A DNA stretch of 64,000 nt from a bacterium (GCA_037200965.1 JBBCGK010000001.1:704001-768000), one strand, 5' to 3'; positions 1,431-26,876 are shown, counted from the stretch's first letter. The notes: generated from the sequence alone by a model not told the origin. Translations and numbers: made by a program.

Positions 1431-2648
1431 ATGGCTAGCCGGAAAACCAAAGTATTCATTTCCATGCCCTTCACTGGCAAGACGTTTGAGAATTTAAGCA
1501 GGGAGCGCGAGGATTTGCATGCGCTTGCGGCAACCTATGATTTGGAACTTCCGGAGCAGTTCATCGGGTATCAATTCGCAGAAGACTTTAAGACCAAGGA
1601 CTACGATCCGTCATTTGTTCTCGCCAAAGATAAAAAGTACATAAAAGAATCCGATATTGTTGTAGCCGATTTCTCGTCTCCTTCTATCGGCACCGATTGC
1701 GAAACTACTATCGCAAAGGAACTCTATGACAAAAAGATTATCGGCATCGTTCCGGACGTGAATAAGCGGAAGCACGCATGGCTACGCTTTTATTGCGACG
1801 ACTTCGTATCTTCGGTCGAGGAGGCGTTCGAGCTCATACGGGCGAAATACGCGAACCATAATCATCCGGAGCATGTCGACAAGCGCCAGTACGACTCTAT
1901 TGCCGTCGAGTACCAGCTTGTCGAAGCCACGCCTATCCAGAAGTACGTGTACGACCCGAACGCGCGGGAGCTTCTCGGGGAATACGGCACCGGCAAGAAA
2001 GTCGCCGTGTTCCATTGCGCGAGCGGGCATCGGGCGCGTATAGCCAAAGAAGCGGGCGCGAAGGAGGTTATCGGGATCGATACTTCCTTTAGGCAGATAA
2101 GTCTCGCTCGTGAGATAGAGCTTTCTAAGCCGCAGGGCATTGAATATCGGGTCCTGAATGCTTATTCGAAGGATTTCCCCGATGAATTTCCAAAGGAATA
2201 TAATGGAAGTCTTGACGTCGTACTCGGGTTTTTCCTCATAGATCACGCGCAGACGGAAACAGAGCTCCAAAAGCTTGCGGAAAACGTTTACTCGAGCCTT
2301 GCGCCCGGAGGAGTGTTTATAGCCATGCTCGACGACTCGGAGGCGCGTACCCCGACTGACCCGAAGTACGGTGTCGCGATAGAGCCTTTAGAAGGGAAGG
2401 GGGATGCGAGCCAGCGCCGCATAGTCATCTATCAGAACATGAAGGACGGCGAGGATCGGGCCGTACTCCATTTCTTCAATTTCGAATGGACACGAGCCAC
2501 GGTACAGAGGGTATTTTCCGAAGCCGGGTTCGCTGCCGAATTCAAGGACCCGTTCGTGGCACCGGAAGGGAAAGAGCGTCTGGGGGAGGACTTCTGGAGG
2601 AAATACGAGGAAGATCCGGACAACGTGCTGTTTATCTGCAGGAAATAA
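1431..2648 (+). CDS. two-domain protein: N-terminal DUF4062 / nucleoside 2-deoxyribosyltransferase-like (TIR/SLOG-fold) domain fused to a class I SAM-dependent methyltransferase
   Basis: The N-terminus KVFISMPFTGKTFENLSREREDL matches the DUF4062 signature (VFISSTFxDLxEER). A GTDCE stretch resembles the NDT catalytic Glu region. The C-terminal half carries a Rossmann MTase motif (KKVAVFHCASGHRARIAKEAGAKEVIGIDTS). Confidence 0.55.
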   Translation: MASRKTKVFISMPFTGKTFENLSREREDLHALAATYDLELPEQFIGYQFAEDFKTKDYDPSFVLAKDKKYIKESDIVVADFSSPSIGTDCETTIAKELYDKKIIGIVPDVNKRKHAWLRFYCDDFVSSVEEAFELIRAKYANHNHPEHVDKRQYDSIAVEYQLVEATPIQKYVYDPNARELLGEYGTGKKVAVFHCASGHRARIAKEAGAKEVIGIDTSFRQISLAREIELSKPQGIEYRVLNAYSKDFPDEFPKEYNGSLDVVLGFFLIDHAQTETELQKLAENVYSSLAPGGVFIAMLDDSEARTPTDPKYGVAIEPLEGKGDASQRRIVIYQNMKDGEDRAVLHFFNFEWTRATVQRVFSEAGFAAEFKDPFVAPEGKERLGEDFWRKYEEDPDNVLFICRK

Positions 2649-2684
2649 TTTCTTCGAGCAGGATTTGAAGTTCTTAAGACAGAT

Positions 2685-3191
2685 TTACTTCAAAATAAAT
2701 TCCTCCCGCAACAGCGCATAGCCGACAGCATCGACGTATTCTCCCGTCTCGCGGTTTTCCCATTCCTTCTTGTGTCGCGCTTCCTGTCGGAAGCCGAGGG
2801 ACTCGAATACTTTTCGCATAGCGGCGTTATCCTCCCTGGTCGTCGCGTATATCCTGCGGATTTTATCGTAGCGGCCGAAGATGTAGGCAATGCCTTCTTT
2901 AAGCAGCTTCGTTCCGACTCCTTTCCCGCGCGCGTCTTTGTCTACGCAGAGAGTAAACGAAGGCGCGTCGCTGCCGGAGTTCTTTATGTTATCGAAATGG
3001 ATGAATCCGAGCAGCTTGCTTTCGTCGTAGCATACGAGCGTCTGAGCCGTCTCGCTTGAGAAATAATTCTCATCCCGGATTGCAAGGCCCCGTTCGTCGA
3101 TTATCGGATCCAGAAAATACTCCCAGCGATTCGAAGTCAGGAGATGATGAATGGCAGGAAGATCTCCGGGTCTGAAAAGATGTATTTCCAT
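2685..3191 (-). CDS. GNAT family N-acetyltransferase
   Basis: Acetyl-CoA binding motif RGKGVGTKLLKEGIAYIF. Length 168 aa. Confidence 0.8.
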   Translation of the reverse strand: MEIHLFRPGDLPAIHHLLTSNRWEYFLDPIIDERGLAIRDENYFSSETAQTLVCYDESKLLGFIHFDNIKNSGSDAPSFTLCVDKDARGKGVGTKLLKEGIAYIFGRYDKIRRIYATTREDNAAMRKVFESLGFRQEARHKKEWENRETGEYVDAVGYALLREEFILK

Positions 3192-3364
3192 GGAATAAAT
3201 AGTACCACTTCCCGCTTCTAGAAAGCGCTACGCTTTTCTCCCTCGACGATCATTACACTTCTTGTCCATCGTGGACTCTTGGTGGGGAAGGCGTGAATAA
3301 AAACCAATCCCCCTCCTTAAGTGAGAGAGCTTTTCCTAATCTAAAGGCGAGATATACTAGACGC

Positions 3365-3820
3365 ATGACAACGCAACAGTATTCAATCCGCATCAACGCG
3401 CCGAAGGAAAAGGTTTGGAACACAATGCTCGGTCAGGACACGTATCGGGAATGGACGAGCGCCTTTAACGAAGGCGGACGTTTTGAGGGCAGCTGGGACC
3501 AGGGTTCCAAGATTCTTTTCCTTGGACCGGATCCTCTGACCGGAAAGGAGGGGGGTATGGTTTCCCGCATCAGGGAGAACAGACCGTATGAGTTCATCTC
3601 TATCGAGCACCTCGGTATTATGAAAGACGGTGTCGAAGATACGACGAGCGAAGAGGCAAAAAAGTGGGCTCCTGCATACGAAAACTATACTTTCACCGAA
3701 AAGGACGGTGTCACCGAAGTGTCCGTAGATATCGACATCGCTGAGGAGTTTGCCGATATGTTTAAAGAGGCGTGGCCGAAGGGTCTTGCAAAGCTTAAAG
3801 AAATCTCCGAAAAGCCCTAG
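3365..3820 (+). CDS. SRPBCC-superfamily protein (AHSA1/Activator-of-Hsp90-ATPase-like)
   Basis: MTTQQYSIRINAPKEKVWNTML...EW is the typical SRPBCC N-terminus. I placed the start at the internal ATG (3365) rather than the ORF-track start 3293, because 3293-3364 is AT-rich and promoter-like. Confidence 0.55.
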   Translation: MTTQQYSIRINAPKEKVWNTMLGQDTYREWTSAFNEGGRFEGSWDQGSKILFLGPDPLTGKEGGMVSRIRENRPYEFISIEHLGIMKDGVEDTTSEEAKKWAPAYENYTFTEKDGVTEVSVDIDIAEEFADMFKEAWPKGLAKLKEISEKP

Positions 3821-3837
3821 GTATGTATCTCTAAAAG

Positions 3838-3868
3838 AAAACAGCCCGCTTAGGTGGGCTGTTTTCTA
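3838..3868 (+). terminator. rho-independent terminator hairpin (CAGCCC-N8-GGGCTG then TTTTCT)
   Basis: GC stem followed by a T-run directly after the stop of the 3365..3820 CDS. Confidence 0.5.
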
Positions 3869-3880
3869 TCTAGCGGGATT

Positions 3881-4022
3881 GGTTATCCCAGGGTTAGAAC
3901 CTCGCTGATGCAAAGAAACTTCTATATTTCCTAAGTGGTAGGCATAATGAGTACACAAAAGCCAATACGTGCCTACAGGGTACCCAGAATTAGGTCGAGA
4001 GGTTAAAACCTCCTCCTACAGA
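3881..4022. repeat. intergenic repeat element, copy 1 (~80% identical to 6790..6990)
   Basis: Shared blocks with copy 2: tagcggg...gttagaacctcgctgat...tatatttcct...aaaagccaatacgtgcctacagggtacccagaattagg...gaggttaaaacctcc. Confidence 0.5.
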
Positions 4023-5309
4023 TTAGGATGCAATTACCTTGTAGATTCGGTTATCAGCCACTGTGTCCGTGTTCTCTAGGTCAACCATTTCAAATACATA
4101 GCCATACTCCTTGAGTGAGTCTTCGAGCAGTGCCAGCGCGTCTTTGTCCTTATTTGAGAAACCGATATAGACCACGCCGTTTGGCGCAAGATATTCCTTT
4201 GTATTCTTAAGAAACTTAACCAGTACGCTATCTTCGTTACTCTGCGTCTTGAATGCATGGGCAAGGCTTGTATCCGTCTTCTTAACCTTCTCATTATGGA
4301 AGGGCGGATTGAAGAAGATGATATCGAAGTGATTTTTATAGATTGAAGGTATTTTTTCGAATAGATTGCTCTCGAAAGCCACCCCCTTATCTTTTTGAGG
4401 AGAATTCTCAAGGTTGTATTTAGCGTTCTGAACGGCAGTTGAATTGATATCGCTCATCACCACTTCTTTTGCGCCTACATCAAGCGCCACGAGGCCCATC
4501 GCTCCATGACCACATGCAATATCGAGAACTTTCTTATCCTTCGATACTCCACGAACAAGCTTCGCGAACAGTTTTGAGGAACGGAATCGATTAGAAGGAT
4601 AGACGCCAGGGAAGACGGTCATTACGAGCTTCTCGAACAGGATTTTATAGTTGCTCGTGTTTTTGAGTACATGCTTATAGATCTCATTCGAGGTGAGAGC
4701 CGGATAGTATATCGGCGGGTAATAGTTTTTCTTTACAAGAGCGTCGAGGTACTTCAGCACGATGGAAGCCGCTTCCTCGCCATCCTTTGCATAGAAGAGG
4801 GGAGTGGAATCAGGATGCATCAAGCCTTCTGCGGCGAATGAGTCTATAAGCGCCTTGTATCGAGTGAAGTAATCACCCACAAGAACAATAGGCTTATTGA
4901 TTTCTCCAAGAATATTCAATATATGGATCTCTAGAATTTCGTGGAATGTACCTACTGCTCCCGGTAGCGCGATGAATGCATCCCCAAGCTCGATAAGTCT
5001 GCGCTGGCGCTCGTAGTGATCCGCATATCCTTCATAATCGGAGAAATAGGGACTTGGCTTAGAATCGCGATTTCCAAGGGCAACGCCAAACAGGTTGCCG
5101 CCTGCTTCCACCGTAGCCTTTGCTACCACGTCCATGAGGCCAGAAGGGCGTCCGCCGTTATTAATGCCGTATCCAGCCTCGCTTATAAGCCGAGCCACGG
5201 CCTTGGCGTCATGAAGATAAGACTCGTTCGTAGTTTCCATGCCGCTGGAGAATATGGTCACGCGAGGCGTATATCCCGCCTCGGTTTTCTTGCTCGGCAT
5301 ATTTGTCAT
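4023..5309 (-). CDS. two-domain protein: N-terminal LOG-family (lysine-decarboxylase-like / SLOG fold) domain fused to a small SAM methyltransferase (MTS, NPPFH-type amino-MTase)
   Basis: LOG motifs GGRPSGLMDVV (GGxxGLM) and LPGAVGTFHEILE (PGGxGTxxE). C-terminal MTase motif I LDIACGHGAMG and motif IV FDIIFFNPPFHNE, which is RsmC/HemK-like. Confidence 0.65.
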   Translation of the reverse strand: MTNMPSKKTEAGYTPRVTIFSSGMETTNESYLHDAKAVARLISEAGYGINNGGRPSGLMDVVAKATVEAGGNLFGVALGNRDSKPSPYFSDYEGYADHYERQRRLIELGDAFIALPGAVGTFHEILEIHILNILGEINKPIVLVGDYFTRYKALIDSFAAEGLMHPDSTPLFYAKDGEEAASIVLKYLDALVKKNYYPPIYYPALTSNEIYKHVLKNTSNYKILFEKLVMTVFPGVYPSNRFRSSKLFAKLVRGVSKDKKVLDIACGHGAMGLVALDVGAKEVVMSDINSTAVQNAKYNLENSPQKDKGVAFESNLFEKIPSIYKNHFDIIFFNPPFHNEKVKKTDTSLAHAFKTQSNEDSVLVKFLKNTKEYLAPNGVVYIGFSNKDKDALALLEDSLKEYGYVFEMVDLENTDTVADNRIYKVIAS

Positions 5310-5397
5310 ATGCGAGAAGTATTGTATAAATGCTATTCACTGTCAAGTGATGTCAGACAGTACTTGACAACAAGTCAGGCAGGAATATACTGACCAT

Positions 5398-6159
5398 ATG
5401 GAACTCAACAAATCCCTTGAAGCTTTGGGCTTCTCATCAAAGGAGATTCAGGTTTATTTGGCGGTGATAAAGCTCGGTAAGACTACTCCAGCCGAAGTGG
5501 CGAAGATTACGAAAATCGGCCGCCCCACGGTCTATAATCTTGTTAAGAGTCTTATATCGAAGGGTGTGATAGCGGAGGATAAGGCCGATGCTGTGCTGCA
5601 CATCGTCGCACTGCCTCCCGAAGGCCTCCGAGCTACTATCGAACGGTCCAAGGTCGAGCTTTCAAAGAAAGAAGAACTTGTTGATGCGGCTATCGAAGAG
5701 CTTGGACTCATCCACTCAGGCGAGACCTATCCGGTGCCGCGCCTCCGTTTCGTGGAGGAGAACGAGCTACACGATTACCTTTTTCAGAATGCGGTTAAGT
5801 GGAATGAAAGCGTCCTCTCTAAGGACGGAATCTGGTACGGCTTCCAAGACCATAGTTTCGTAGAGAATTATGGAGATTGGATTGATTGGACGGTAAAGAA
5901 ACTCAAGGGAACGAAGTACAAGGTTCAACTATTCAGCAACGCTTCGAAAATTGAGGAACAGTTAGAAGGGAAGATCCCAGAGCGCTCAATCAAGTTCCTA
6001 AAGAGCTCTCGCTTTACGGCAACTACCTGGGTGGTAGGGGATTACCTCGTGATGATCTCAACCTCGAAGGCCCCGTTCTATTTGGTGGAGATTCACGATG
6101 CTCTTATGGCAGAGAATATGCGCGAAGTGTTTAAGAATATGTGGGAGATAAATAAATAA
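5398..6159 (+). CDS. TrmB-family HTH transcriptional regulator
   Basis: N-terminal winged-helix EIQVYLAVIKLGKTTPAEVAKITKIGRPTVYNLVKSLISKGVI. Length 253 aa, typical of TrmB. Confidence 0.6.
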   Translation: MELNKSLEALGFSSKEIQVYLAVIKLGKTTPAEVAKITKIGRPTVYNLVKSLISKGVIAEDKADAVLHIVALPPEGLRATIERSKVELSKKEELVDAAIEELGLIHSGETYPVPRLRFVEENELHDYLFQNAVKWNESVLSKDGIWYGFQDHSFVENYGDWIDWTVKKLKGTKYKVQLFSNASKIEEQLEGKIPERSIKFLKSSRFTATTWVVGDYLVMISTSKAPFYLVEIHDALMAENMREVFKNMWEINK

Positions 6160-6164
6160 GAATT

Positions 6165-6725
6165 ATGGATCGATACCTTGATCAGTGGGCGCGAATTAAC
6201 CGCTGGCATAGAAAAGTCAATACTTTTTATGAAGGAGAGAGAAGTGTTCTTGAGGATAATGAAAGATTGGATATGGTCCGAACTTTTTTCATAGAATGCT
6301 TTCATTTAAAGGATTGGATCAAAGCTGACTTTCCGAATCTTTCAGTAGCTACCGAAAGAATATTTGATCGAGTAGAAGGCGAGGAATGTTTCAAAATTTG
6401 TGCAGACCTAGCGAATGCATCGAAACACGTGGATCTTAATAAGGCAGTCAGAAAAGATAAAGAAACTAAAATCGGTACTCAAGGAATTACAATCATGGTT
6501 GATCCTATTAAATGGGATTCAGACCCGAAGGATTATTTGCCGCCCGTGTGTAAATACCGATGGGACATCATAGCGTCAAGGAAGAAGTTTGATGTAAAAG
6601 AGCTAGCCGATGAGTGTATTGAGAGTTGGAAGAAGTTTATGCGCAAGAATGGACTATCTATAGAGATTGTTGCTCGATTGTCCATTCCAATAGATGGAAC
6701 ATCTTTTGATGCCAAAGCGTCTTAG
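6165..6725 (+). CDS. hypothetical protein
   Basis: 186-aa ORF starting 6 nt after the TrmB-like gene in an AT-rich island. No motif recognised. Confidence 0.45.
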   Translation: MDRYLDQWARINRWHRKVNTFYEGERSVLEDNERLDMVRTFFIECFHLKDWIKADFPNLSVATERIFDRVEGEECFKICADLANASKHVDLNKAVRKDKETKIGTQGITIMVDPIKWDSDPKDYLPPVCKYRWDIIASRKKFDVKELADECIESWKKFMRKNGLSIEIVARLSIPIDGTSFDAKAS

Positions 6726-6789
6726 TACCGAAAGTAACAGTGATACTCCAGTCGTTTAAGAGATTACGGGAGAGGTGGAGGAAAGTTCC

Positions 6790-6990
6790 TAGCGGGTGCT
6801 TTTATGAAACTAGGTGGAATTGGATATCCGAGATAAGAACCTCGCTGATACTAAACAGCTCCTCATATTTCCTTCGTGTAGTGGATGACTGGGTATCAAA
6901 ATGAGCATACAAAAGCCAATACGTGCTTATAGGGTGCCCAAAACTAGGCGGAGGGGTTAGAACCTCCCATATTTTGGTAGTATTATCTAC
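6790..6990. repeat. intergenic repeat element, copy 2 (see 3881..4022)
   Basis: ~80% identity to copy 1 over ~150 nt. Ends in the hairpin-capable GGAGGGGTTAGAACCTCCC. A third short fragment (gttagaaccccc) lies at ~8078-8095. Confidence 0.5.
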
Positions 6991-7497
6991 ATGAAGATCG
7001 AATGGCTCGGAAAACGAATAGCAGTGGTTGGAGTAAGCGCATCAGGAAAATCAACTTTTGCGCGCAGACTTGCTACTAAGACTGGTCTGCCCCTGACGCA
7101 CATTGATGCCGTGATGTGGAAGCCGGGATGGGATTATATTGGCGATGAAGAAACAGTCCGCCAGCTCAAAGAAATCAGCAAGCAGGATGAATGGATCATC
7201 GAAGGATTCATCGATAAGAATGCTCTCGAAGCAGTTCTGACTCGTGCCGAATCAATAATCTATCTCGACTATCCGCGATACATACCTGCGTGGAGATACA
7301 TAAAACGATGGTTTAAGCATCGAAAGAATCCGCGCCCAGAATTGGAGGGCAGTCCAGAGAAATTCAGCTTTGAATTTCTGAAGCGGGTATGGGATAAGAA
7401 GGAAGTCTATCGGCTAAACGAATTTATTAAGAAAATGCCTGATACAAGCAAGATTCTGAGGCTCAAGTTGCCGAAGGAAGCAAATACTTTTCTATGA
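6991..7497 (+). CDS. P-loop NTPase, adenylate-kinase-like 'DNA topology modulation protein' (FlaR-like) family
   Basis: Walker A GVSASGKST near the N-terminus. Size 168 aa. Confidence 0.55.
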   Translation: MKIEWLGKRIAVVGVSASGKSTFARRLATKTGLPLTHIDAVMWKPGWDYIGDEETVRQLKEISKQDEWIIEGFIDKNALEAVLTRAESIIYLDYPRYIPAWRYIKRWFKHRKNPRPELEGSPEKFSFEFLKRVWDKKEVYRLNEFIKKMPDTSKILRLKLPKEANTFL

Positions 7498-7509
7498 GAG
7501 TAGTTACAT

Positions 7510-8028
7510 ATGGCTAGACTTATTATTCTCAATGGACCTCCTGGTGTAGGCAAATCTACGATTGCTGCACGTCTGCATAAGGATATTTCAAATTCGATAC
7601 TTCTGGATATAGATGAGATTCGTCGCTCCATTCCAAATTATAAAGAGCAACGTAAGGAAAGTCTGATTCTGGCGTATCAGGAGGCAATGCGGACCATAGA
7701 AGACTGTTTAGCTAAAGATCAGACCGTTATTATAGATAAGGTTGTTTCGGACTCAGATACACTCGATTCTTTTGTTGAGGCAGGGAATAAACAGGGTGTC
7801 GTAATAAATGAGATTCTCCTATTTGCAGACAAGGAATCAGTACAGAAGCGAGCAGACGAGCGTGGTTACAAACCAGGAAGTTTACTTACCCGTGAGCGAG
7901 TAGGAGACATGTGGGATCAAGTGAGTGTACTCAGAAGAAGTAGGAATAACGCTGTTGTTATGGATACGACTCATTTAAATCTTGAAGAAGTGTACAAAAA
8001 TGTAAGAGGAATAATCGGGCAAGTATAA
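7510..8028 (+). CDS. P-loop kinase-like ATPase (AAA_33 / zeta-toxin / shikimate-kinase-like)
   Basis: Walker A NGPPGVGKST. Length 172 aa. Tandem to the previous kinase-like gene. Confidence 0.5.
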   Translation: MARLIILNGPPGVGKSTIAARLHKDISNSILLDIDEIRRSIPNYKEQRKESLILAYQEAMRTIEDCLAKDQTVIIDKVVSDSDTLDSFVEAGNKQGVVINEILLFADKESVQKRADERGYKPGSLLTRERVGDMWDQVSVLRRSRNNAVVMDTTHLNLEEVYKNVRGIIGQV

Positions 8029-8153
8029 CCCGCCGGTAGGGGTGGAAGAGAAGTCCGGAATTTCTGAGAAGTTTCTGCAGAAAGTTAGAACCCCCAATCT
8101 GTTAAGACGCGCCAACACGAATGGTTACTTAACTCGGCCTTTCGTGAAATGAT

Positions 8154-8566
8154 GTGGAGGTGGGGAGGTTGAACTCCCGTCCGACCTGCGCTTGAGAGCG
8201 AGTCTACGGCGCGTAGTTCCGATTAGGGTTTAAGAGAGGATGCGAGGAAACGGAACGAAACCATTCCCCTCCGATCCCGTTATCTAAGCCGCGGGCCGGG
8301 AGAGCCGCGAACCGATCGCACAGAAGATTCCGCCCGCTGGCCCGGCTGTGCGCACCCGGGACCAGGGACGTCGCTTAGGCGAGGTGAGCCGAAGCTCGAA
8401 CCTTATGCGTAAGCGAACGCGAAGTTCCCTGCGGTAAAGTAAGGAGACTTCACGCCTACAACAGTTTTGTTTGCAGGTAGAGTTTCCCGCCAGATTAAAG
8501 TGATGGGCGGGAGTGCACTGCGCCGCACGTCTCTCAAGGTACAGGCCGTCAAAGCCGGTCACCCCC
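8154..8566 (-). ncRNA. ssrA: tmRNA (ssrA), one-piece
   Basis: The minus-strand 5' end GGGGGUGACCGGCUUUGACGG matches the tmRNA 5' consensus (GGGGCUGAUUCUGGAUUCGACGG). The 3' end GGACGGGAGUUCAACCUCCCCACCUCCA is a tRNA-Ala-like T-arm plus acceptor. There is an internal ORF ending ...AGNFAFAYA-UAA. The gene sits adjacent to smpB. Confidence 0.7.
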
Positions 8567-8604
8567 GGGGAAGGAGAGACTCGAGTGTCTCGCGCTCTCC
8601 GGGA

Positions 8605-9048
8605 TTACCGATTCTTCAGTATACGTTCGGCGTCGCGTTTCGCGTCCTTTTTCTTGAGATCCTCCCGTTTGTCCTTCTTCCCCTTGCCGCGGACGATCGC
8701 AACGCGCGCCTTGATATACCGCTTACTACTATACACCGAAAGTGGCACTACTGTCAATCCCTTCTTCGATTCGGCATCGGCCAGTTGCGCTAGTTCGGGC
8801 TTCGTCATAAGAAGACGGCGGTTGCGTTCCGGATCGTAGCTCTCCGGAGTGTTCTTGGCCTGATAGGGAGGGATGGTTGCGCCGACCAGATAGGCTTCTC
8901 CGCCGCGGACGAGCACCCGCGCTCCTTCGAGGCTCCCGAGCTTCCCGCGAAGCGCCTTCGCCTCGCCGCCCGAGAGCTCGAGGCCCGCATCGAATGTCTC
9001 AATGATCTCGTATTTGAGGCCCGCTTTTTTGTTTTCGATAAGATTCAT
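8605..9048 (-). CDS. smpB: SsrA-binding protein SmpB
   Basis: MNLIENKKAGLKYEIIETFDAGLELSGGEAKALR... is a canonical SmpB. Confidence 0.9.
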   Translation of the reverse strand: MNLIENKKAGLKYEIIETFDAGLELSGGEAKALRGKLGSLEGARVLVRGGEAYLVGATIPPYQAKNTPESYDPERNRRLLMTKPELAQLADAESKKGLTVVPLSVYSSKRYIKARVAIVRGKGKKDKREDLKKKDAKRDAERILKNR

Positions 9049-12383: not shown

Positions 12384-12455
12384 CCACCCATAGCTCAATG
12401 GTAGAGCGATCGACTTATATTCGATTGGCTCCAGGTTCGAGTCCTGGTGGGTGGA
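12384..12455 (+). tRNA. tRNA, anticodon read as UAU (Ile2-type); no encoded CCA
   Basis: Cloverleaf: acceptor CCACCCA/TGGGTGG, D-arm GCTC-AATGGTA-GAGC, anticodon arm ATCGA-CTTATAT-TCGAT, T-arm CCAGG-TTCGAGT-CCTGG, discriminator A. Confidence 0.7.
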
Positions 12456-13280
12456 CTACCGAGGGAATATATCAACGAGTTCGCCCGAACTATAAAAGTC
12501 CGCGGCAAGACCGCCGAAGCTATACGAAACACCGAGAATATCGATGGCCGCGCCGCCTACCTGCGGATTCGCGTTCGGGGTCGAATGCGCGAAGCCGATG
12601 TTGTAAAGCGTCGAGACGACCGCGGGGTTTCCTTCGATAGGGAAGCCCGCCTTCCTCCACTGCGCTTCCACCTCCTTTATATAGAGTCCCGCATAGAGAT
12701 AGCTCCAATAGTGGTCGTGCTGGTCGGTCATGCGCGCGAAGCGTTCGCTTTCTACGTCGGTCGTCCGGAAGTCGAGCGCGTGCCCGAACTCAGGCCCCGG
12801 ATAGTACGGCGAGGCCGGATCCTTCAGATTATTCTCCACTTGGATCGCCGTGTCTTCTTTCATCCCCATCACGCCCCAGGAAAACTGTGTCTGAGAACCC
12901 AGGATCTTGAGCGGATAGAAGAATTGCTTATAAAACTCCCGTTCCGTGAAGAAAAGCCGCAGCTGTTCGGCGACCAAATTCGCGGCGATGAGCCGCGCGG
13001 GAACGCCCGAGTCGGCAGCCGCCCGGTCGAGCGCCGCGGTATCTTTCCGAAGCGCCGCCTCGAGCACCTGCCATTCTTCGGTCTTCTGCCAGGGCGTGCC
13101 ACGCGGATCGCTAGGCGCGAAGTCGGTCGATGTCGCGGAACCGATGAACGCTTCGCGCTGGAGGTCGACGATGCCGCTCGTGTTGGTGAGTCCGAACCGG
13201 ACCGCGAAGTATCCGACGACGAGGAAGAAGCCGATCGCGGCGAATATATAAATGACGATCGAGACGACTTTCTTAAGCAT
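12456..13280 (-). CDS. hypothetical membrane-anchored protein
   Basis: N-terminal TM helix (VVSIVIYIFAAIGFFLVVGYFAV) and balanced composition. The opposite-strand ORF 12447..13316 is R-rich and was judged spurious. Confidence 0.5.
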   Translation of the reverse strand: MLKKVVSIVIYIFAAIGFFLVVGYFAVRFGLTNTSGIVDLQREAFIGSATSTDFAPSDPRGTPWQKTEEWQVLEAALRKDTAALDRAAADSGVPARLIAANLVAEQLRLFFTEREFYKQFFYPLKILGSQTQFSWGVMGMKEDTAIQVENNLKDPASPYYPGPEFGHALDFRTTDVESERFARMTDQHDHYWSYLYAGLYIKEVEAQWRKAGFPIEGNPAVVSTLYNIGFAHSTPNANPQVGGAAIDILGVSYSFGGLAADFYSSGELVDIFPR

Positions 13281-13786
13281 GTACGTGCAGCCTACCGTCC
13301 CCGTTCCGTTGTGTAAATGAAGGGGCGCTTGACAGGAGAGACGGGATGGTATGAGATACGGGCAGATGATTGTTTAAAGGAGGGAATTCGCCATGAACGA
13401 ACACTCGAATCTCTGTGTGTTCTTGGATTGCGTCGAAACGGTCCTCAGGGTTCCGTGTTCGCTTGGACGCCGTTTCACTATCGGCGAAACGGAAACGGGA
13501 TTGAGCGCCAGGCAGGATGTCGAACAGACGACGGGATACCGCGAAGGATGCAGCGTAGCTCTCGTCGGCATCCGGGAGAGGCTGAGCTTTCGCCGGTGGC
13601 CATACCTCACGTGCTTCGTGACGTTCGCCTTGTGGAGCGAAGGCACGTGCTACGCGCTGATCAGCCTCGCTCCGGACGAGGTTTCAAGCAAGGACGGACA
13701 TTCGTATACGCACGCGATCGGCGTATTCCCGCCAGAACGCGGAAACGCCGAACTGTATCTCCTGGTTTCCACGCCCACGTCGTAAA

Positions 13787-13815
13787 AGTCCCCGCTCGCG
13801 AACAGGCGCGACGCG
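13787..13815 (-). terminator. hairpin downstream of recG (CCCCGCGTCGCGC-N5-GCGCGAGCGGGG)
   Basis: GC-rich inverted repeat located 13-40 nt after the recG stop. The T-tract is weak. Confidence 0.3.
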
Positions 13816-13827
13816 GGGCTTGGTATT

Positions 13828-15993
13828 TCATTCCCGATGCACGTCTTCGCCTGCCTGCCTCGCAAGCGCCGCGAGAAGGGGATAGCGCCTGAGTTCGGGA
13901 TCTTTTTGTACCAGGAGCGCCGCTTCCTTTTTCGCGGCTTCGACCAATTTTATATTCTTAAGCGCTTCCATGGCGATGTCGGAGACGCCCCACTGTCTCC
14001 CGCCGATAAGTTCCCCGGCGCCGCGAAGCGCAAGATCGTACTCGGCGAGCTCGAAGCCGTTTTTTGCCGTCACGAGCGCCTTGAGGCGGTCGCGGGTCGC
14101 GGGGCCATAGCGCTCGGGAAGCGCGAAGCAATAGGCCTGATGCGTCGAACGGATCACGCGGCCGCGAAGCTGATGGAGCTGGGCAAGCCCGAAGCGCTCC
14201 GCGCCCTCGATGAGTATCACGGTCGCGTTCGGTACGTTCACGCCCACTTCGACCACGCTCGTCGCGACGAGGATGCCGGTCTCACCCCGCTCGAAGCTCC
14301 CCATCACCGTCTCTTTTTCCTTCGGCGTCATCTTGCTGTGGAGGACGCCGATACTCGCCTCGGGAAACACTTCCTTCTTGAGCCGCTCGGCTTCCGCCTT
14401 GACCGACTTGGCCTGGAGCGCCATTTCTTTTGCCGGATCGGGCTCGTGTATGCGCGGGCATATTACGTACGCTTGGCGGCCTGCCGCGAGTTCCTTTCGT
14501 ACGCGCTCGTATGCCTGCTCGCGCTTCTCGGGCCCGAGCACTTCGGTCGCGACGGGCTTTCTTCCAAGCGGCATCTGGTCAAGAAGCGAAAGGTCGAGGT
14601 CGCCGTATATGGTGAGGGCCAAAGTGCGAGGGATCGGGGTCGCGGTCATCGAAAGGAGATGTGGGGAGAGCCCGTCCTTGCGGGCCAGTCTTTGCCGGTG
14701 CACTTTCCCGAAGCGGTGCTGCTCGTCGATGATCGCGTACGCGAGCGTACTGAACTCAAGGGACTTCTGTATGATCGCGTGCGTGCCGATTACGATCGGT
14801 ATCTCGCCGTTCGCGACCCATTTGCGGAACTGCGCGCGCGAAATCGGCGTCGATTCTTCCTTGCGGATCTTCGAGGGAAACTTGCGGCACTCGCTTCCCG
14901 TCAGAAGCCCGATCGCGATCGGATGGTCTTTAAAGTATGAGATGAACGTGGAGAAATGCTGCTTCGCGAGGATTTCCGTGGGGCACATGTACGCGATCTG
15001 GAGCGTGCCCGCTTTTCTTCCCGGCGGGCGCGACGTCGCGACAAGATACGCGGTCGCCGCGGCGACCGCAGTCTTGCCGCTTCCGACGTCCCCTTCAAGA
15101 AGACGCATCATCGGATGCGGCTTCTCAAAGTCCGAAACGATGGTCTCGATGGCGGCAAGCTGCGCTTTGGTCGGGGGGAAGGGGAAGGAAGATACGAAGC
15201 CCGCGAGTTTTCCGCGGTCGACCGTGACCGGAAGCGCTTTCTCCCTTGAAGCCTCCGCCCTTCGCTTATACATCGCGAGCTGAAGCGCGAAGACTTCCTC
15301 GAAGGCGAAGCGCTTCCGCGCCGCTTCCGCGTTCGCGCGCGTCTTTGGCGCGTGCATCCATACGAGCGCCGTCCCGAGCGTCGGCAGGTTGTATCGCCTG
15401 AGCATCTCCCGCGGCAAGGGGTCTTCGATCGTCTCGTGTATGCCGGTTTCGAATACGCGCTTGAGGGAATGGAAGAACCAGAGCGAAGACACTCCCTTGC
15501 TCTCGGGATAGACGGGATAGAGCTGTTCGCCTTCGGGAAGTGCGCCGTTTGAGAACAGCGTGTCGTGTATTTCATCCGGACTTACGGGCGACCGGTCGAT
15601 GTCCGGATTCGCCACGTACGGCTTCTCATTGGTGCCCGCCGTGCGGCCCGTGACTTTCACGACCATGCCGTCGTGAAGCGTTTTCGCGATATAGGGCTGG
15701 GAAAACCACATGAGCTTGATGCGCCCCGACGCGTCCTCAAGCCACGCCTCCGCGATCGGCCTGCGGCTTTTCCATGTTTTCCGCACGTCGGGCTTCCGGA
15801 TCGTGCCATAGAGCGTAACGTCGGTCCCCGGAGCGACCGCGGTTACGGTGCCGGTCGGGCCCGCGGCTTCATAGCGCTGGGGGAAATGATAGAGCAGGTC
15901 GCGCACCGTGCGGATGCCGAGCTTCCCGAGCGCCTTCTTCTGGTCGGGCTTGAGGCGCGTGAAGTGCTTTTCTAGGGGGTCCTCCGGTGTCAT
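13828..15993 (-). CDS. recG: ATP-dependent DNA helicase RecG
   Basis: Walker A GDVGSGKT, DEQHRFG box, and an N-terminal wedge domain. Length 721 aa. Confidence 0.9.
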   Translation of the reverse strand: MTPEDPLEKHFTRLKPDQKKALGKLGIRTVRDLLYHFPQRYEAAGPTGTVTAVAPGTDVTLYGTIRKPDVRKTWKSRRPIAEAWLEDASGRIKLMWFSQPYIAKTLHDGMVVKVTGRTAGTNEKPYVANPDIDRSPVSPDEIHDTLFSNGALPEGEQLYPVYPESKGVSSLWFFHSLKRVFETGIHETIEDPLPREMLRRYNLPTLGTALVWMHAPKTRANAEAARKRFAFEEVFALQLAMYKRRAEASREKALPVTVDRGKLAGFVSSFPFPPTKAQLAAIETIVSDFEKPHPMMRLLEGDVGSGKTAVAAATAYLVATSRPPGRKAGTLQIAYMCPTEILAKQHFSTFISYFKDHPIAIGLLTGSECRKFPSKIRKEESTPISRAQFRKWVANGEIPIVIGTHAIIQKSLEFSTLAYAIIDEQHRFGKVHRQRLARKDGLSPHLLSMTATPIPRTLALTIYGDLDLSLLDQMPLGRKPVATEVLGPEKREQAYERVRKELAAGRQAYVICPRIHEPDPAKEMALQAKSVKAEAERLKKEVFPEASIGVLHSKMTPKEKETVMGSFERGETGILVATSVVEVGVNVPNATVILIEGAERFGLAQLHQLRGRVIRSTHQAYCFALPERYGPATRDRLKALVTAKNGFELAEYDLALRGAGELIGGRQWGVSDIAMEALKNIKLVEAAKKEAALLVQKDPELRRYPLLAALARQAGEDVHRE

Positions 15994-21925: not shown

Positions 21926-22011
21926 GAGGACACTATAGGCCGGGCAGATGGTATTTCAATGAGGGCGCTGTCTTCTGCCTTATAGGGGAATATGCTAAGG
22001 TTCTCCTCAAA

Positions 22012-22101
22012 GGAGACGTGGCTGAGTGGTCGAAAGTACCTCACTGCTAACGAGGCAGGGATTAACGTCCCTCGAGGGTTCGAATCCCTCCGTCTCCGCC
22101 A
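22012..22101 (+). tRNA. tRNA-Ser (anticodon GCU), CCA encoded
   Basis: GGAGACG acceptor, long variable arm GCAGGGATTAACGTCCCTC, anticodon loop CTGCTAA, T-loop GGTTCGAATCC, ...CGTCTCC-G-CCA. Confidence 0.85.
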
Positions 22102-22155
22102 GATGTCCAAATTCGAACCCAAGCAGAATAAGGGTATTTGGACTAAGATAATGAC

Positions 22156-23250
22156 ATGGCAACCAAAACGGCAAATTCAGGTCTTCATCAGGCCAAAACT
22201 GCCAAAAAGGACGAGTTTTATACCCAACTCGTTGATATTGAAAAAGAGCTGAAACACTACAAGGACCAATTTCGTGGCAAGGTGATTTTTCTGAATTGTG
22301 ACGATCCGTACGAAAGCAACTTCTTCAAGTATTTCGCTGGTAATTTCAATGCTCTCGGATTAAAGCAGCTTATTGCCACGAGCTACAAGCGATCGCCTAT
22401 TGCCAACACCCAATTAGGACTCTTTACCGATGGTGAGGTAGTGTCCGCAACTAAAGGCCGCCCAAAAGTGACTGCCAACAAATTCGTTATTAACGAAGTT
22501 GATGACATAAATGGTGACGGTTCTTTTGACTTGCGTGATATTGCGGAGCAGCTTAAAGCTAATAAAAATAACGAATGGACTCCATTAGACGGCGAAGGAG
22601 ATTTTCGGAGTCCGGAGAGCGTAGAACTGCTCAAGCAAGCTGATATTGTGGTGACAAACCCGCCCTTCTCGCTTTTCGGCGAGTATATTGATCAACTTGT
22701 TCAATACCAGAAAAAGTTTCTGATATTAGGAAATCAGAACGCTATTAAATATAAAAATGTCTTCAAGCTTATAAAGGAGAATAGGATGTGGCTAGGCTAT
22801 GACAATGGAGGAACGAAATGGTTCCAGGTGCCGGATGACTATGATATACAAACCGAATCAAGAATCAAAATAGAAAACGGTGTGAAATATTTTAGTATGG
22901 GCAGCATTGTGTGGTTTACAAATCTTGACACAACGAAGCGTCACATAGATTTCACAATGTACAAAAAATACAAACCCGAAGCATATTCAAAGTACGATAA
23001 TTACGACGCGATCGAGGTTTCTAGGGTGGTAGAAATACCAATGGACTATGGCGGCGAAATGGGAGTTCCGATTACCTTTTTAGATAAATATAATCCTGAC
23101 CAATTTGAGATTATTGATCTGCTAAACCGATACACCTTGTTTGACTCTCAGCAAACGAACGAAGATGTCAGACGAAGGCACTCCCACACTTGTAATATCA
23201 ATGGCAAGGCCGTATTTTCTCGAATTTTAATAAAGAACAAGCAAATTTGA
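22156..23250 (+). CDS. N6-adenine-type DNA methyltransferase (NPPF motif; EcoRI-methylase-like family)
   Basis: DEFYTQ...VIFLNCDDPYES followed by IVVTNPPFS (motif IV). AT-rich codon usage distinct from the host. Confidence 0.6.
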   Translation: MATKTANSGLHQAKTAKKDEFYTQLVDIEKELKHYKDQFRGKVIFLNCDDPYESNFFKYFAGNFNALGLKQLIATSYKRSPIANTQLGLFTDGEVVSATKGRPKVTANKFVINEVDDINGDGSFDLRDIAEQLKANKNNEWTPLDGEGDFRSPESVELLKQADIVVTNPPFSLFGEYIDQLVQYQKKFLILGNQNAIKYKNVFKLIKENRMWLGYDNGGTKWFQVPDDYDIQTESRIKIENGVKYFSMGSIVWFTNLDTTKRHIDFTMYKKYKPEAYSKYDNYDAIEVSRVVEIPMDYGGEMGVPITFLDKYNPDQFEIIDLLNRYTLFDSQQTNEDVRRRHSHTCNINGKAVFSRILIKNKQI

Positions 23251-23258
23251 AAATAATT

Positions 23259-24362
23259 ATGAAAATCGAGCTAAATAAGGTTTCGGTCCGTGAAGTGGTG
23301 GCAGAATATAAAGACAGCGCTGAGGAGGGTGTTGTGGCCTATGACGGTAAGCTCGATGTGCGCCCAAAGTATCAGCGAGAATTCGTATATAAAGACAAAC
23401 AACGCGATGCCGTTATTGATACTGTCAGAAAAGGGTTTCCACTTAACGTGATGTATTGGGTAAAGACCGACGAAGGAAATTTTGAAGTATTGGACGGGCA
23501 GCAGAGAACAATCAGTCTCGGTCAGTATGTAAACGGTGACTTCTCTGTTGATTTCAACGGTCGTCTGGCTATGTTCCACAACCTTACCAAAGAAGAGCAG
23601 GAGCAGATTCTGAACTATGAACTGATGATTTATTTCTGCGAAGGAAACGATAAGGAAAAGCTCGATTGGTTCAAGATCATCAATATTGGCGGTGAGCGTC
23701 TAACCGATCAGGAGTTACGCAATGCTGTCTATACCGGTCCGTGGCTTTCTGATGCCAAGCTCAAATTCAGTAAATCAAACTGTGCGGCATACCTCCTCGC
23801 AAACGATGGCGGTGCGCTGCTCAAGGGCTCTCCAATTCGGCAAGAATACTTGGAAACTGCGATCTCATGGATAAATAACGGGGATGTGGCGGGCTACATG
23901 GCAAAACACCAGCACGATGAGAATGCGGAAGAATTATGGAAGTACTTCCAAAGTGTTATTGAGTGGGTACGCAGGACCTTCCCAAACTACCGCAAAGAAA
24001 TGGCGAGCGTAAATTGGGGGGAACTATATAACGAATACAAAGACAAAAAACTCGACGACACAAAACTAGAAGAGGAAATCGCACGATTGATGCAAGACGA
24101 AGATGTAACGAAGAAATCCGGTATTTACCCTTATGTCCTTACGGGCGAGGAACATCACCTTTCAATCCGTGCGTTTAACGACAATATGAAGCGGGAGGCG
24201 TATGAGCGCCAGAAAGGTATCTGTGTGAAATGCGGGAAGAAGTTTGAGATCGAGGAAATGGAAGCCGACCACATTACACCGTGGCACCAGGGAGGAAAAA
24301 CAAAAGCCGAAAATTGCCAGATGCTATGTAAAGACGATAACCGGAGAAAATCTGGAAAATGA
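23259..24362 (+). CDS. DUF262 (ParB/GmrS-like, DGQQR) domain fused to C-terminal HNH endonuclease
   Basis: LDGQQRTISL (DUF262 signature). C-terminal CVKCGKKFEIEEMEADHITPWHQGGKTKAENCQMLCKDDN is a canonical HNH Cys4/His-Asn finger. The ORF-track start 23247 is a TTG; the ATG at 23259 lies 8 nt after the MTase stop. Confidence 0.7.
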   Translation: MKIELNKVSVREVVAEYKDSAEEGVVAYDGKLDVRPKYQREFVYKDKQRDAVIDTVRKGFPLNVMYWVKTDEGNFEVLDGQQRTISLGQYVNGDFSVDFNGRLAMFHNLTKEEQEQILNYELMIYFCEGNDKEKLDWFKIINIGGERLTDQELRNAVYTGPWLSDAKLKFSKSNCAAYLLANDGGALLKGSPIRQEYLETAISWINNGDVAGYMAKHQHDENAEELWKYFQSVIEWVRRTFPNYRKEMASVNWGELYNEYKDKKLDDTKLEEEIARLMQDEDVTKKSGIYPYVLTGEEHHLSIRAFNDNMKREAYERQKGICVKCGKKFEIEEMEADHITPWHQGGKTKAENCQMLCKDDNRRKSGK

Positions 24363-24997
24363 TAATGAAACAAGGAGATCTCCATATCTGGGTAAGAAAA
24401 TTACTCCAACAGCTTCGTACCCAAACCGATTCAAAAGAAGATTTATATACAAATATTCTTCTCTGGGCACACGATAAGCAAGAGTCTGGATTCTCATGGG
24501 AGGAAATGAGATCAAAGTTCTCACTGAATGCAGAACAAGAACATTGGGTTAGGAATATTTTCCTAACTACTTCAGATGGAGATAGGAAATTCTTTGAACA
24601 TTTACGGAACGATGATTCCGTATCACCGAATATTTATTACTACGCTTTAAATGAAAAAGGGATCACAGCGGCAATAAACTACAAGGGCTTGCGACATGCT
24701 GAAAAGAGCAGCACCCAAGCGTTATGGGTCGCAAGTATATCTATTTTTCTGGCAGCTATCGGTTTGTTTTTTACAGTTAAACAAACGAATTTGGCCGAGA
24801 CCCAAAGTATCTCGGAAAGGATAAATCAAGCAAGGAGTATACAATCAGCGCTTGAATTCTGTCAGCAGAATCCTGATTCTCAAGATTCTGGTCTCTATGA
24901 GATCTCGACTGGTAAATCTGCTTCATGTCCTCAAGTAGTGCGTAACTATTCCTCTACCTCCTCACTGTTGGATAGAATCAAAAGTCTGTTTAAGTAA
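24359..24997 (+). CDS. small protein with one central TM helix (unknown function), third gene of operon
   Basis: Its ATG overlaps the upstream stop (ATGA). The TM segment is ALWVASISIFLAAIGLFFTV. Confidence 0.5.
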   Translation: MIMKQGDLHIWVRKLLQQLRTQTDSKEDLYTNILLWAHDKQESGFSWEEMRSKFSLNAEQEHWVRNIFLTTSDGDRKFFEHLRNDDSVSPNIYYYALNEKGITAAINYKGLRHAEKSSTQALWVASISIFLAAIGLFFTVKQTNLAETQSISERINQARSIQSALEFCQQNPDSQDSGLYEISTGKSASCPQVVRNYSSTSSLLDRIKSLFK

Positions 24998-25405
24998 CTG
25001 GAGAATTCGGATTTATTCTATTGAATAATCGATCGCACTCTTTCTTTTAGACGATTTAGGCTGTGGCACCTCAAACCACTCCGGATGAGCTTTATATATA
25101 GCCCTCAATTCCTGTATACTTTTATCAAGTTTCCCGAAGGTAAGCCGTGTTTTTGGTTCGAATTTCGGGACACCGCCTCCGCATCTAACAGCTAGCACCA
25201 GGAACCTCGGGTCTAGCTGGTGTCTAAAAACATCCGGTACTTTCTCTTACTTGTTCAATATAAAAAGGACGGGCCGGAACTGTAGAAGTTCCGGCCCATG
25301 TACTGTGTTCCCGTATTGAGTTTTGTATATTGCTTGATCAGGTGGTCCTACCTGTTGCAGGCGTGAGGAGAGACTTACTCTCCTCACGTTTATAACCTGC
25401 AGGAC

Positions 25406-25807
25406 TTATAGGTCGTCCATACACCATGCGCACATCGACACATGGCTCAACGCTTCAGTCAGGCGTCCGACGGAAGGGGCATGAAACTCATAGGGAGTCA
25501 TATGCACGTCCTTCCATTGAAGTTTCGACGCTATTCCAAAACATTGGTAGCCGTCGCTTTCGCGGTCTGGGTCTTCGAGGTTCTGAACTTCAGAATCCCA
25601 ACTCTGGAAGCCGAGAGCTCCCGCGTCTTTATCTCTAAGATTGTCATCGACAACCTTAAAAATGCCCGCGGATAATTCTTCCACGAGTAGCCACGACCTT
25701 TGTGACAACCGTACGCCCGCAAGGGCGTTTATACGGCCTCCGAGAGAGGACGCATGGTCGGCATGGACGTATATCCGGTGCCGACGGACAAATAGCAATC
25801 TGAACAA
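25406..25807 (-). CDS. hypothetical protein (possible gene fragment)
   Basis: 133-aa ORF in a 52% GC patch between the island and IS30. No motif recognised. Confidence 0.3.
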   Translation of the reverse strand: MFRLLFVRRHRIYVHADHASSLGGRINALAGVRLSQRSWLLVEELSAGIFKVVDDNLRDKDAGALGFQSWDSEVQNLEDPDRESDGYQCFGIASKLQWKDVHMTPYEFHAPSVGRLTEALSHVSMCAWCMDDL

Positions 25808-25886
25808 CTGCTCAACTCCTCTGTTAGATTTTCAGGGAACACAGCGCCTAAAGTGTAACAGTGTACATAACATATGTCAATACCCG

Positions 25887-26876
25887 GGCTTGAATCCGCT
25901 CCTGAAACGCAACACCTGACGTAGGCTCGGTGGATGAGCCATCACCACCTTTCGCGCGGCGAGCGGGTCGCGCTTGCTGCGTTTCTCCGGACAGGAAAGA
26001 GCCGGGCCGAATGCGCCCGTCTTCTTGGCGTCCACCGCTCGACCATCTCGCGGGAACTGCGGCGCGGCGGTACCGAATACAAGGCGGTCGCCGCAGACAA
26101 GGAAGCCGCACGGCTGCGGAGAGAATCAAAACAACGAGCGCGGAAGATCGAGAACGACCATTCACTCGAACGAGAAATCGTTCGACTCCTGAAGAAGGGA
26201 CACTCTCCCGAACAGGTATCAGAAGAGGTGCGGTTCGTCTCGGACGACGCCATATACGATTGGATTGAACGTTCCCGAAAAGATCTCGCGGTACTCCTGC
26301 CCCAGCGCGGCAAGGTGCGCCGCCGGTACGGGAAGAATACGGGCGCGGTCCAAGGATGGACGAAATCCGTACGCAGTATCGCAGAGCGACCGAAGGCGGC
26401 GAACGACCGCTCCCGCATCGGCGACTGGGAAGGAGATACGGTCGCCGGACGGGATCGCGCCCGTCTGCTCGTGCATGTCGACCGGAAGAGCCGGTTCATC
26501 CTGGCCACGATCACGGCAAACGGGACTGCCGATACGATCCATGCCGCTGCGGGAGCCTCGTTCAAGGGACTTCCCGTTCGAACCATCACGTATGACCGCG
26601 GCAGCGAGTTCGCTCTCTGGCGCATGATTGAGCGCGATACCGGCGCAACCGTGTACTTCGCGAACGCGCATCATCCGTGGGAACGGGGCACGAGCGAGAA
26701 CTCGAACGGCCTCCTGCGGCGGTTCTTTCCGAAAGGAACGCCGATCGGCGAGAAGCTCCAGCGGGACGTTGACCGGGCCGTGCGGCTCATCAATCATCGG
26801 CCGAGGAAATGTCTCGGCTGGAAGACGCCCTGCCGCGTGTTTGGCCGCTGTTGCGTTTCAGGCTAGGATTCAAGCC
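25887..26876 (+). mobile_element. IS30-family insertion sequence
   Basis: Terminal inverted repeats: IRL GGCTTGAATCCGCTCCTGAAACGCAACA (25887-25914) and IRR, reverse-complemented, GGCTTGAATCCTAGCCTGAAACGCAACA (26849-26876). The single transposase ORF ends inside the IRR. Confidence 0.8.
25934..26866 (+). CDS. IS30-family DDE transposase
   Basis: N-terminal HTH (RAECARLLGVHRSTISRELRRG) and DDE core (DWEGDTV...TYDRGSEF...HPWERGTSEN). Confidence 0.85.
   Translation: MSHHHLSRGERVALAAFLRTGKSRAECARLLGVHRSTISRELRRGGTEYKAVAADKEAARLRRESKQRARKIENDHSLEREIVRLLKKGHSPEQVSEEVRFVSDDAIYDWIERSRKDLAVLLPQRGKVRRRYGKNTGAVQGWTKSVRSIAERPKAANDRSRIGDWEGDTVAGRDRARLLVHVDRKSRFILATITANGTADTIHAAAGASFKGLPVRTITYDRGSEFALWRMIERDTGATVYFANAHHPWERGTSENSNGLLRRFFPKGTPIGEKLQRDVDRAVRLINHRPRKCLGWKTPCRVFGRCCVSG

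Follow-up and report, generated by a model that had tools for sequence, protein, structure and literature searches.

In cytokinin synthesis, an isopentenyltransferase modifies AMP at the N6 position and a LOG enzyme then frees the base, while the LOG-fold protein PpnN degrades nucleotides. The MTS-type methyltransferases (PF05175) include HemK, which methylates glutamine, and Asc-Orf2, which methylates a carbamoyl group. Bacteria of the candidate phyla radiation (CPR), or Patescibacteria, are unable to make nucleotides and rely on host-derived ones. For the C. glutamicum enzyme CgLOG, Arg99 and Glu122 have been proposed as catalytic residues, with the phosphate held by the backbone of the PGGxGT motif and its threonine, and with Met96, His97, Lys100, Glu121, Glu125 and Trp129 forming the base and prenyl pocket (PMC4979012). 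Here we describe a gene that joins a LOG domain to an MTS-type methyltransferase, located at positions 4023-5309 of a 64,000-nucleotide stretch of DNA (GCA_037200965.1 JBBCGK010000001.1:704001-768000; hereafter 'the window'). We refer to this gene and its product as LOG-MT.

The two-domain gene was confirmed as real by the evidence listed in Table 1, with a possible alternative start at Met4 (position 5300). Its N-terminus is a LOG-type domain of the SLOG superfamily, as the first-pass annotation had claimed from two sequence signatures. PF03641 matches amino acids 59-177 with 65.5 bits (cutoff 27; Pfam), both signatures (GGRPSGLM at amino acids 52-59 and PGAVGTFHE at amino acids 116-124) are present, and the region has the Rossmann-like fold of LOG proteins. 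The SLOG model PF18306 also matches this domain (E 1e-10), and LOG proper outscores SLOG cluster 4 (Pfam). When the CgLOG residues were mapped onto LOG-MT by pairwise alignment, the catalytic Arg99 and Glu122 corresponded to Arg101 (codon 5007-5009) and Glu124 (codon 4938-4940). This dyad is kept in 20 of the 22 family members, and the phosphate-binding GxGT motif is kept as well; in the PGGxGTxxE motif, which reads PGAVGTFHE here, the second glycine is replaced by alanine in 11/22 members. The base pocket is altered, with Met96, His97, Lys100, Glu121 and Trp129 of CgLOG replaced by His98, Tyr99, Gln102, His123 and Leu131. Across the family, His98, Gln102, His123 and His129 are near-invariant, Leu131 is found in 13/22 members and Tyr99 is variable. 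Because the dyad and the GxGT motif are kept and the base pocket is changed, the domain appears equipped to act as an N-glycosidase on nucleoside monophosphates, but with another base specificity.

The C-terminus is an MTS-type NPPF amino-methyltransferase domain (PF05175, 71.4 bits, cutoff 23; Pfam), again in agreement with the initial claim. It contains motif I (DIACGHGAMG, 4494-4523) and motif IV (NPPFH, 4296-4310); residues D263xxG267xG269, D287 and N334PPFH338 are conserved, and 19-22 of the 22 members retain the motif I for S-adenosylmethionine (SAM), the DIN motif and NPPFH. Two further signatures are invariant within the clade: the Arg/Ser-rich YPSNRFRSS (4575-4601) and FSNKD (amino acids 384-388). 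The conserved bridge between the two domains, together with a predicted structure of LOG-MT with a pTM (predicted template-modelling score) of 0.86, argues for a fixed two-domain unit. Among the 22 members, only P0024 and P0088 have lost PGxGTxxE by deletion, and both also carry SPPFF instead of NPPFH; this paired change suggests linked decay or retuning of the two sites, as would fit functional coupling.

Divergently from LOG-MT lies a gene for a TrmB-family winged-helix regulator (PF01978, 53.5 bits, cutoff 25.6, amino acids 7-64, E 2e-14), the closest solved relative of which is TrmBL2 (E 4e-4). Orthologues with 58-94% identity adjoin LOG-MT in the same divergent orientation in 9/9 close-clade loci, defined by a LOG-MT identity of at least 67% and by available upstream sequence, and the regulator is slightly more conserved than LOG-MT itself. 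The intergenic regions of these nine loci share a 30-bp palindrome, which occurs once in the 64-kb window where no copy is expected by chance, and the outer arms of which are the -35 hexamers of two divergent promoters, both strong by sequence. Judging from the spacing, the two transcripts would be nearly leaderless. We infer that an autoregulated TrmB repressor gates LOG-MT by binding the palindrome over both -35 boxes, and that it responds to a small ligand. In two more distant two-domain members (L008 and L026), a divergent double winged-helix-turn-helix regulator of AsnC/MarR type stands in TrmB's place, and in other relatives a binding domain is fused to the enzyme; because one of these three types was found with each, every version of LOG-MT appears to come with a small-molecule-sensing module. 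Our literature search found no account of TrmB regulators in CPR bacteria, a lineage in which, to our knowledge, almost no transcription regulation has been characterized. As a separate observation, positions 3000-9000 of the Kerfeldbacteria loci L008/L009 hold several paralogous TrmB regulators, each with a different neighboring accessory gene (ATPase_2/DUF4143, HepT/MNT toxin-antitoxin or small open reading frames (ORFs)); together they resemble an array of cassettes, each made up of a regulator and its cargo.

Table 1. Coordinates of LOG-MT, its regulatory region and other annotated features of the window (aa, amino acids).
Feature	Position	Strand	Remarks
LOG-methyltransferase fusion (LOG-MT) gene	4023..5309	-	428 aa; ORF list, Pfam PF03641 + PF05175, family alignment, gene calls in near-identical strain
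LOG domain	4725..5273	-	aa ~13-195 of LOG-MT
Inter-domain bridge	4620..4724	-	aa 196-230; Y202, P203, H213 and L224 invariant (alignment)
MTS-type SAM-dependent N-methyltransferase domain	4026..4619	-	aa 231-428
TrmB-family winged-helix regulator	5398..6159	+	253 aa; divergent partner of LOG-MT
Palindromic operator candidate, 30 bp	5341..5370	.	TTGTCAA-N4-TGTC-T-GACA-N4-TTGACA; divergent intergenic region
Sigma-70-like promoter, LOG-MT	5318..5346	-	TTGACA-17-AATACT; -35 box = one palindrome arm
Sigma-70-like promoter, TrmB	5364..5391	+	TTGACA-16-TATACT, 11/12; -35 box = other palindrome arm
DNPH1/NDT-like domain + ToxA-like N-methyltransferase fusion (NDT-MT)	1431..2648	+	separate gene, not obligate partner
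Conserved non-coding element, copy A	3856..4018	+	abuts LOG-MT stop codon
Conserved non-coding element, copy B	6791..6973	+	with copy A = direct repeats
tmRNA gene	8154-8566	-	low-GC island edge
smpB	8605-9048	-	beside tmRNA gene

LOG-MT is a rare and patchily distributed protein of the ultra-small CPR/Patescibacteria. Only 35 matches were recovered from 5.8 billion proteins, of which ~24 were full-length LOG+MTS fusions (41-89% identity), and a search with the methyltransferase half alone against 1.84 billion cluster representatives returned only ~10 clusters at E <= 1e-30. Named sources include Patescibacteria, Adlerbacteria, Kerfeldbacteria, Peregrinibacteria and Peribacteria; a few bins carry other labels and may be misbinned, and a 340-kb high-GC contig with LOG-MT (L006) may be non-CPR. 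The methyltransferase clade contains three architectures: LOG-MT itself (~426 aa), a form of ~750-790 aa with an additional binding domain and a form of ~347 aa with an uncharacterized N-extension. The ~750-790-aa form consists of LOG, MTS and a C-terminal Peripla_BP_6 / Leu-Ile-Val-type binding domain with no apparent signal peptide, and was found at L013-L017 and L027-L031 (for example, L028 9986-12241) in Peregrinibacteria- and Peribacteria-type genomes. At three of these loci (L015, L028 and L029), a divergent lipoprotein gene of the same Pfam family as the fused domain lies upstream. The idea that the imported ligand is also the one sensed found no support, as the L028 lipoprotein and the fused binding domain are not detectably similar (E 0.76). 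Beyond the clade, the next relatives are stand-alone MTS enzymes of MJ0882/PRK14968 type (~225 aa), none at a curated cutoff, and the LOG partner at the N-terminus is unique to this methyltransferase clade. Full-text literature searches turned up no account of a fusion between LOG/SLOG and a methyltransferase; the architecture, the dedicated repressor with its operator and the three-domain relatives appear undescribed, although each of the two domains comes from a well-known family.

The first-pass annotation had also paired LOG-MT with the gene at 1431-2648, read as an NDT/TIR-fold protein with a methyltransferase of its own, and had suggested, as speculation, that the two act as a signal generator and its sensor. 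The NDT part of that reading stood, as did the methyltransferase, and nothing points to TIR. This neighbor (NDT-MT) belongs to a family of ~50 members, and its N-domain is NDT/DNPH1-like: PF05014 matches 11/12 members (best E 6e-5, domain-only profiles), and DNPH1 aligns to the domain at E 0.002, with its catalytic glutamate on the invariant E91. Foldseek with the NDT-MT model was saturated by methyltransferase matches, and the fold of the N-domain was not resolvable that way. The C-domain is ToxA-like (PDB 8rdl, E 8.5e-24; Foldseek 5je1, template-modelling score 0.85); ToxA is a toxoflavin synthase, and the class is that of heterocycle N-methyltransferases.

Pairing was counted within ±10 kb of each gene, not over whole genomes. 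By this measure, LOG-MT and NDT-MT occur together at 2 of 15 independent LOG-MT loci, namely the window and L004, where an NDT-MT homologue (12925-14160, 48% identical) lies 1.6 kb from LOG-MT. Conversely, LOG-MT was found at 0/4 NDT-MT loci (L035-L038). Two further loci (L039 and L040) repeat the arrangement of the window but come from near-identical strains, and so were not counted as independent. At the SmpB/FtsH site that both share with the window, L001 holds LOG-MT and TrmB only and L035 holds NDT-MT only, while in L038 NDT-MT is inserted into a ribosomal-protein operon between L5 and S14. Because of these low co-location counts, and because each gene is found alone at the same site, LOG-MT and NDT-MT are independent and not a conserved pair; the conserved partner of LOG-MT is the TrmB regulator. 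In the window, the LOG-MT/TrmB palindrome is not found upstream of the gene at 1431, and NDT-MT has no TrmB partner. The generator-and-sensor proposal is thus not supported, although the single co-occurrence elsewhere means that, by the refutation criterion given with the first-pass annotation, it is weakened rather than formally refuted. The sensor role suggested for LOG-MT is weakened too by the retained Arg/Glu dyad, which points to an enzyme and not to a pure sensor, and PADLOC gave no match to Thoeris or CBASS.

The explanation that we favor, at a probability of about 0.42, is that LOG-MT is a bifunctional enzyme under repressor control, which splits a nucleoside monophosphate and methylates the base on a nitrogen. 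The LOG domain would hydrolyze the N-glycosidic bond of a nucleoside 5'-monophosphate to give the free base and ribose 5-phosphate; because the base pocket is remodeled, the substrate is probably not a cytokinin nucleotide. The MTS domain would transfer a methyl group from SAM to an exocyclic nitrogen (amine or amide) on that base or nucleotide. This might happen before cleavage, in the manner of isopentenyltransferase and LOG in cytokinin synthesis, or after it, capping the released base; the net result would be ribose 5-phosphate and a nucleobase methylated on nitrogen. We count in favor of this explanation a nucleotide-related context that recurs near LOG-MT and its sister clade. At L033 (9016-11196), a sister methyltransferase of ~347 aa sits in a tight guanylate-kinase-like / methyltransferase / NUDIX operon preceded by two GNAT genes; in L011, thyA overlaps the LOG-MT stop codon; and in L010, LOG-MT converges on a PfkB kinase and a NUDIX gene. 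We also count the unrelated NDT-MT fusion, which by analogy appears to repeat the logic of a nucleotide N-glycosidase joined to an N-methyltransferase in the same lineage. A precedent for a methylated purine exists in B. pertussis BpLOG, the reported physiological product of which is 6-O-methylguanine (PMC6864091). Also in line with this explanation are the retained active sites of both domains, their fixed arrangement, the accompanying sensing modules and the operator. A gene so rare, so patchily distributed and of such low GC content is unlikely to encode a core rRNA modifier.

Several observations weigh against the bifunctional enzyme. Each of the nucleotide-metabolism neighbors was seen in a single lineage only, and the joint loss of both motifs in P0024 and P0088 is probably a single evolutionary event. 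The substrates of most characterized PF05175/MTS enzymes are macromolecules (rRNA, tRNA, release factors and ribosomal proteins), and the nearest methyltransferase relatives (MJ0882/PRK14968, RsmC and HemK) are of this type. Lastly, both the fused binding domain and the AsnC-type regulators suggest ligands of amino-acid or amide type, for which the nucleotide model has no explanation.

The main rival, which we consider somewhat unlikely, is that LOG-MT methylates a macromolecule, either rRNA or tRNA (m2G/m6A) or a protein glutamine or lysine, with the LOG domain serving as a nucleotide-binding regulatory or docking module that replaces the non-catalytic N-domain of RsmC/RlmG-type enzymes. The methyltransferase half has the GVF/YxS...NPPFH pattern typical of RsmC, RlmG and MJ0882, and its sequence and structural neighbors are mostly RNA or protein N-methyltransferases. 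It is also basic (isoelectric point 8.7), although values from 5.6 to 10 across the family do not separate RNA from small-molecule substrates. Furthermore, the ~347-aa sister clade carries its N-extension where RsmC has its N-domain, and one member is labeled RsmC by JGI. However, curated RNA and protein methyltransferase models fall far below their cutoffs (NCBIfam equivalogs, score/cutoff: RsmC 46.3/295, RlmG 30.1/468, RsmD 46.2/117.5, PrmC 51.3/199, PrmB 46.3/230, TrmN 38/350 and PRK14968.1-3 78.5/162), a docking module would not need the conserved LOG dyad, and a rare, patchy, island-borne gene with its own repressor would be unusual for a ribosome or tRNA modification enzyme. The amino-acid or amide ligands mentioned above lead to another reading, which we hold to be improbable: amino-acid or amide metabolism linked to nucleotide breakdown, in which the methyltransferase, in the manner of HemK or Asc-Orf2, would methylate an amide or amine nitrogen on a small molecule resembling an amino acid, or amino acids would set the enzyme allosterically while LOG degrades nucleotides like PpnN. 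The LOG-MT of the window has no binding domain, and the fused and neighboring binding proteins of its relatives show no detectable similarity.

We regard an immune or conflict module as very improbable. In such a module, the NDT/TIR-like protein at 1431-2648 would make a nucleotide signal, the SLOG domain would sense it and a methyltransferase effector would be switched on. SLOG domains do sense cyclic ADP-ribose isomers in Thoeris ThsA, the variable low-GC island holds toxin-like P-loop kinases, relatives lie among accessory cassettes (for example, HepT/MNT and HTH_3-Peptidase_M78), the two fusions are close neighbors in the independent genome L004 and the methyltransferase half matches PADLOC mad2 (E 3e-22, methyltransferase region only). 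Set against this are the scarce co-location and the separate operator arrangement, the absence of any ThsA, ThsB, TIR, SIR2 or CBASS profile match in Pfam or PADLOC, the retained hydrolase dyad with the higher score for LOG proper, and the alignment of the neighbor's N-domain with DNPH1 hydrolases and not TIR, one of its homologues residing in a ribosomal-protein operon. A tblastn search against phages found only separate LOG or methyltransferase genes, at 26-31% identity and never as a fusion, and a scan of viral contigs for the LOG-MT fusion found nothing. Barely credible, in our view, is a canonical cytokinin-activating LOG that was fused to a methyltransferase by chance. The best solved relatives of the domain are indeed cytokinin riboside 5'-monophosphate phosphoribohydrolases, but the protein falls short of the NCBIfam cutoffs for the NF058542 equivalog (40.9 bits, cutoff 300) and TIGR00730 (84.2, cutoff 96.35), the adenine/prenyl pocket residues of CgLOG are replaced and no isopentenyltransferase was seen in any examined neighborhood.

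If the coupling proposed for the bifunctional enzyme is real, LOG-MT would be the first single polypeptide to join nucleotide N-glycosidic cleavage and base N-methylation, and would provide a short path to free methylated nucleobases or a means of disposing of unwanted nucleotides. It would bear on the nucleotide pools or host communication of genome-reduced, salvage-dependent CPR bacteria, and would take the LOG family outside cytokinin biology and add small-molecule nucleotides to the substrates of MTS methyltransferases. The TrmB/operator pair is a testable candidate for a regulatory switch. A bolder version is a long shot: LOG-MT would make a free N-methylated nucleobase as a 'methyl-cytokinin-like' signal or effector directed toward the host or community, the ligand-sensing repressor would switch the pathway on and the DNPH1-ToxA-type fusion would be a convergent counterpart. 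Should LOG-MT instead prove to methylate RNA or protein, with LOG as an accessory domain, it would be just a new domain combination of modest interest.

Both fusion genes lie in one small island, as initially noted. The region 1431-8028 has a GC content of 46.7%, compared to 59.0% for the rest of the window, and begins directly 3' of the transfer-messenger RNA (tmRNA) gene, a classic island site; it looks like an ssrA-associated variable island. Relatives hold different cargo at the same SmpB/FtsH site (YcaO, HTH_3-Peptidase_M78, NTP_transf_2 and TauE), and the GC content of the LOG-MT/regulator module was below that of its flanks in 14/14 loci examined. No integrase and no att duplication were found at the island of the window.

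Within the island, two copies of a conserved non-coding element (~165-180 nt) bracket exactly LOG-MT, TrmB and a 186-aa ORF, with 83% identity over a 71-nt core and 74% over an extended alignment. In the L001 lineage, a third copy (L001 11289-11469) lies directly against the stop codon of LOG-MT; no further copies were found in the window or in 40 loci. The element matches no Rfam family, and RNAalifold on the three sequences (both strands) gave positive, that is unfavorable, covariation terms and no convincing structure. It could be a cassette boundary, a small RNA or a 3' untranslated region element, whereas an ssrA att duplication was rejected because the element does not resemble the resident tmRNA. 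The 186-aa ORF, which follows TrmB, was rejected as part of the module, having no Pfam match and no homologue in related loci. Between the cassette and the tmRNA gene are two P-loop kinase-like genes at 6991-7497 (AAA_18) and 7510-8028 (AAA_33/Zeta_toxin-like; PADLOC VakA, E 1e-6); a homologue of the former (34% identical) lies 2.7 kb from LOG-MT in L021. Elsewhere in the window, a second low-GC stretch at 22001-26000 (43-46% versus ~60%) suggests another island, and a tRNA-Ile gene with anticodon TAT was found at 12384-12456, an uncommon means of reading AUA in bacteria.

Compared to known systems, LOG-MT consists of domains from known families in a new architecture and shows no sign of a defense role. 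It is only 24-29% identical to type-I LOG enzymes such as CgLOG (PDB 5its/5zbl), below the NCBIfam cutoffs, and differs from them in its replaced base/prenyl pocket, its fused methyltransferase and a neighborhood without cytokinin pathway genes. E. coli PpnN/YgdH and B. pertussis BpLOG are also of LOG fold and act on ordinary or methylated purine and pyrimidine nucleoside monophosphates, not on cytokinins; unlike LOG-MT, these enzymes either stand alone or have accessory domains of other kinds, never a fused methyltransferase. Control of PpnN is by (p)ppGpp, whereas LOG-MT would be controlled by its TrmB repressor. Among MTS N-methyltransferases, the comparison covered MJ0882/PRK14968, RsmC/RlmG (m2G), HemK/PrmC and HEMK2 (glutamine N5), TrmN6/TrmM and METTL5 (m6A) and Asc-Orf2 (carbamoyl N); LOG-MT reaches no curated cutoff and is set apart by its YPSNRFRSS and FSNKD signatures and its LOG partner.

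Thoeris ThsA (SIR2-SLOG) shares the SLOG superfamily with the N-domain of LOG-MT, which likewise lies in an accessory island. LOG-MT differs in having no SIR2, transmembrane or Macro effector and no TIR ThsB partner, and in its kept LOG hydrolase dyad and higher LOG-proper score; its PADLOC matches are to methyltransferase models only, without ThsA, and Pfam finds no SIR2 or Macro domain. As for MADS, the mad2 match spans profile positions 267-429 of 492, the methyltransferase core and not the full length, while the other mad genes are represented by weak P-loop matches to mad3 (E 0.004) and mad8 (E 0.001). NDT-MT (DNPH1/Rcl-like plus ToxA-like) has the same domain order and logic as LOG-MT and occurs in the same lineage and sometimes in the same island, but neither of its domains shows a sequence relationship to a LOG-MT domain and the two genes occur independently. 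Cytokinin biosynthesis, too, combines an N-modifying transferase with a LOG hydrolase, a prenyltransferase taking the place that a SAM methyltransferase has in LOG-MT; by analogy only, the proposed enzyme would be its methyl counterpart in one polypeptide.

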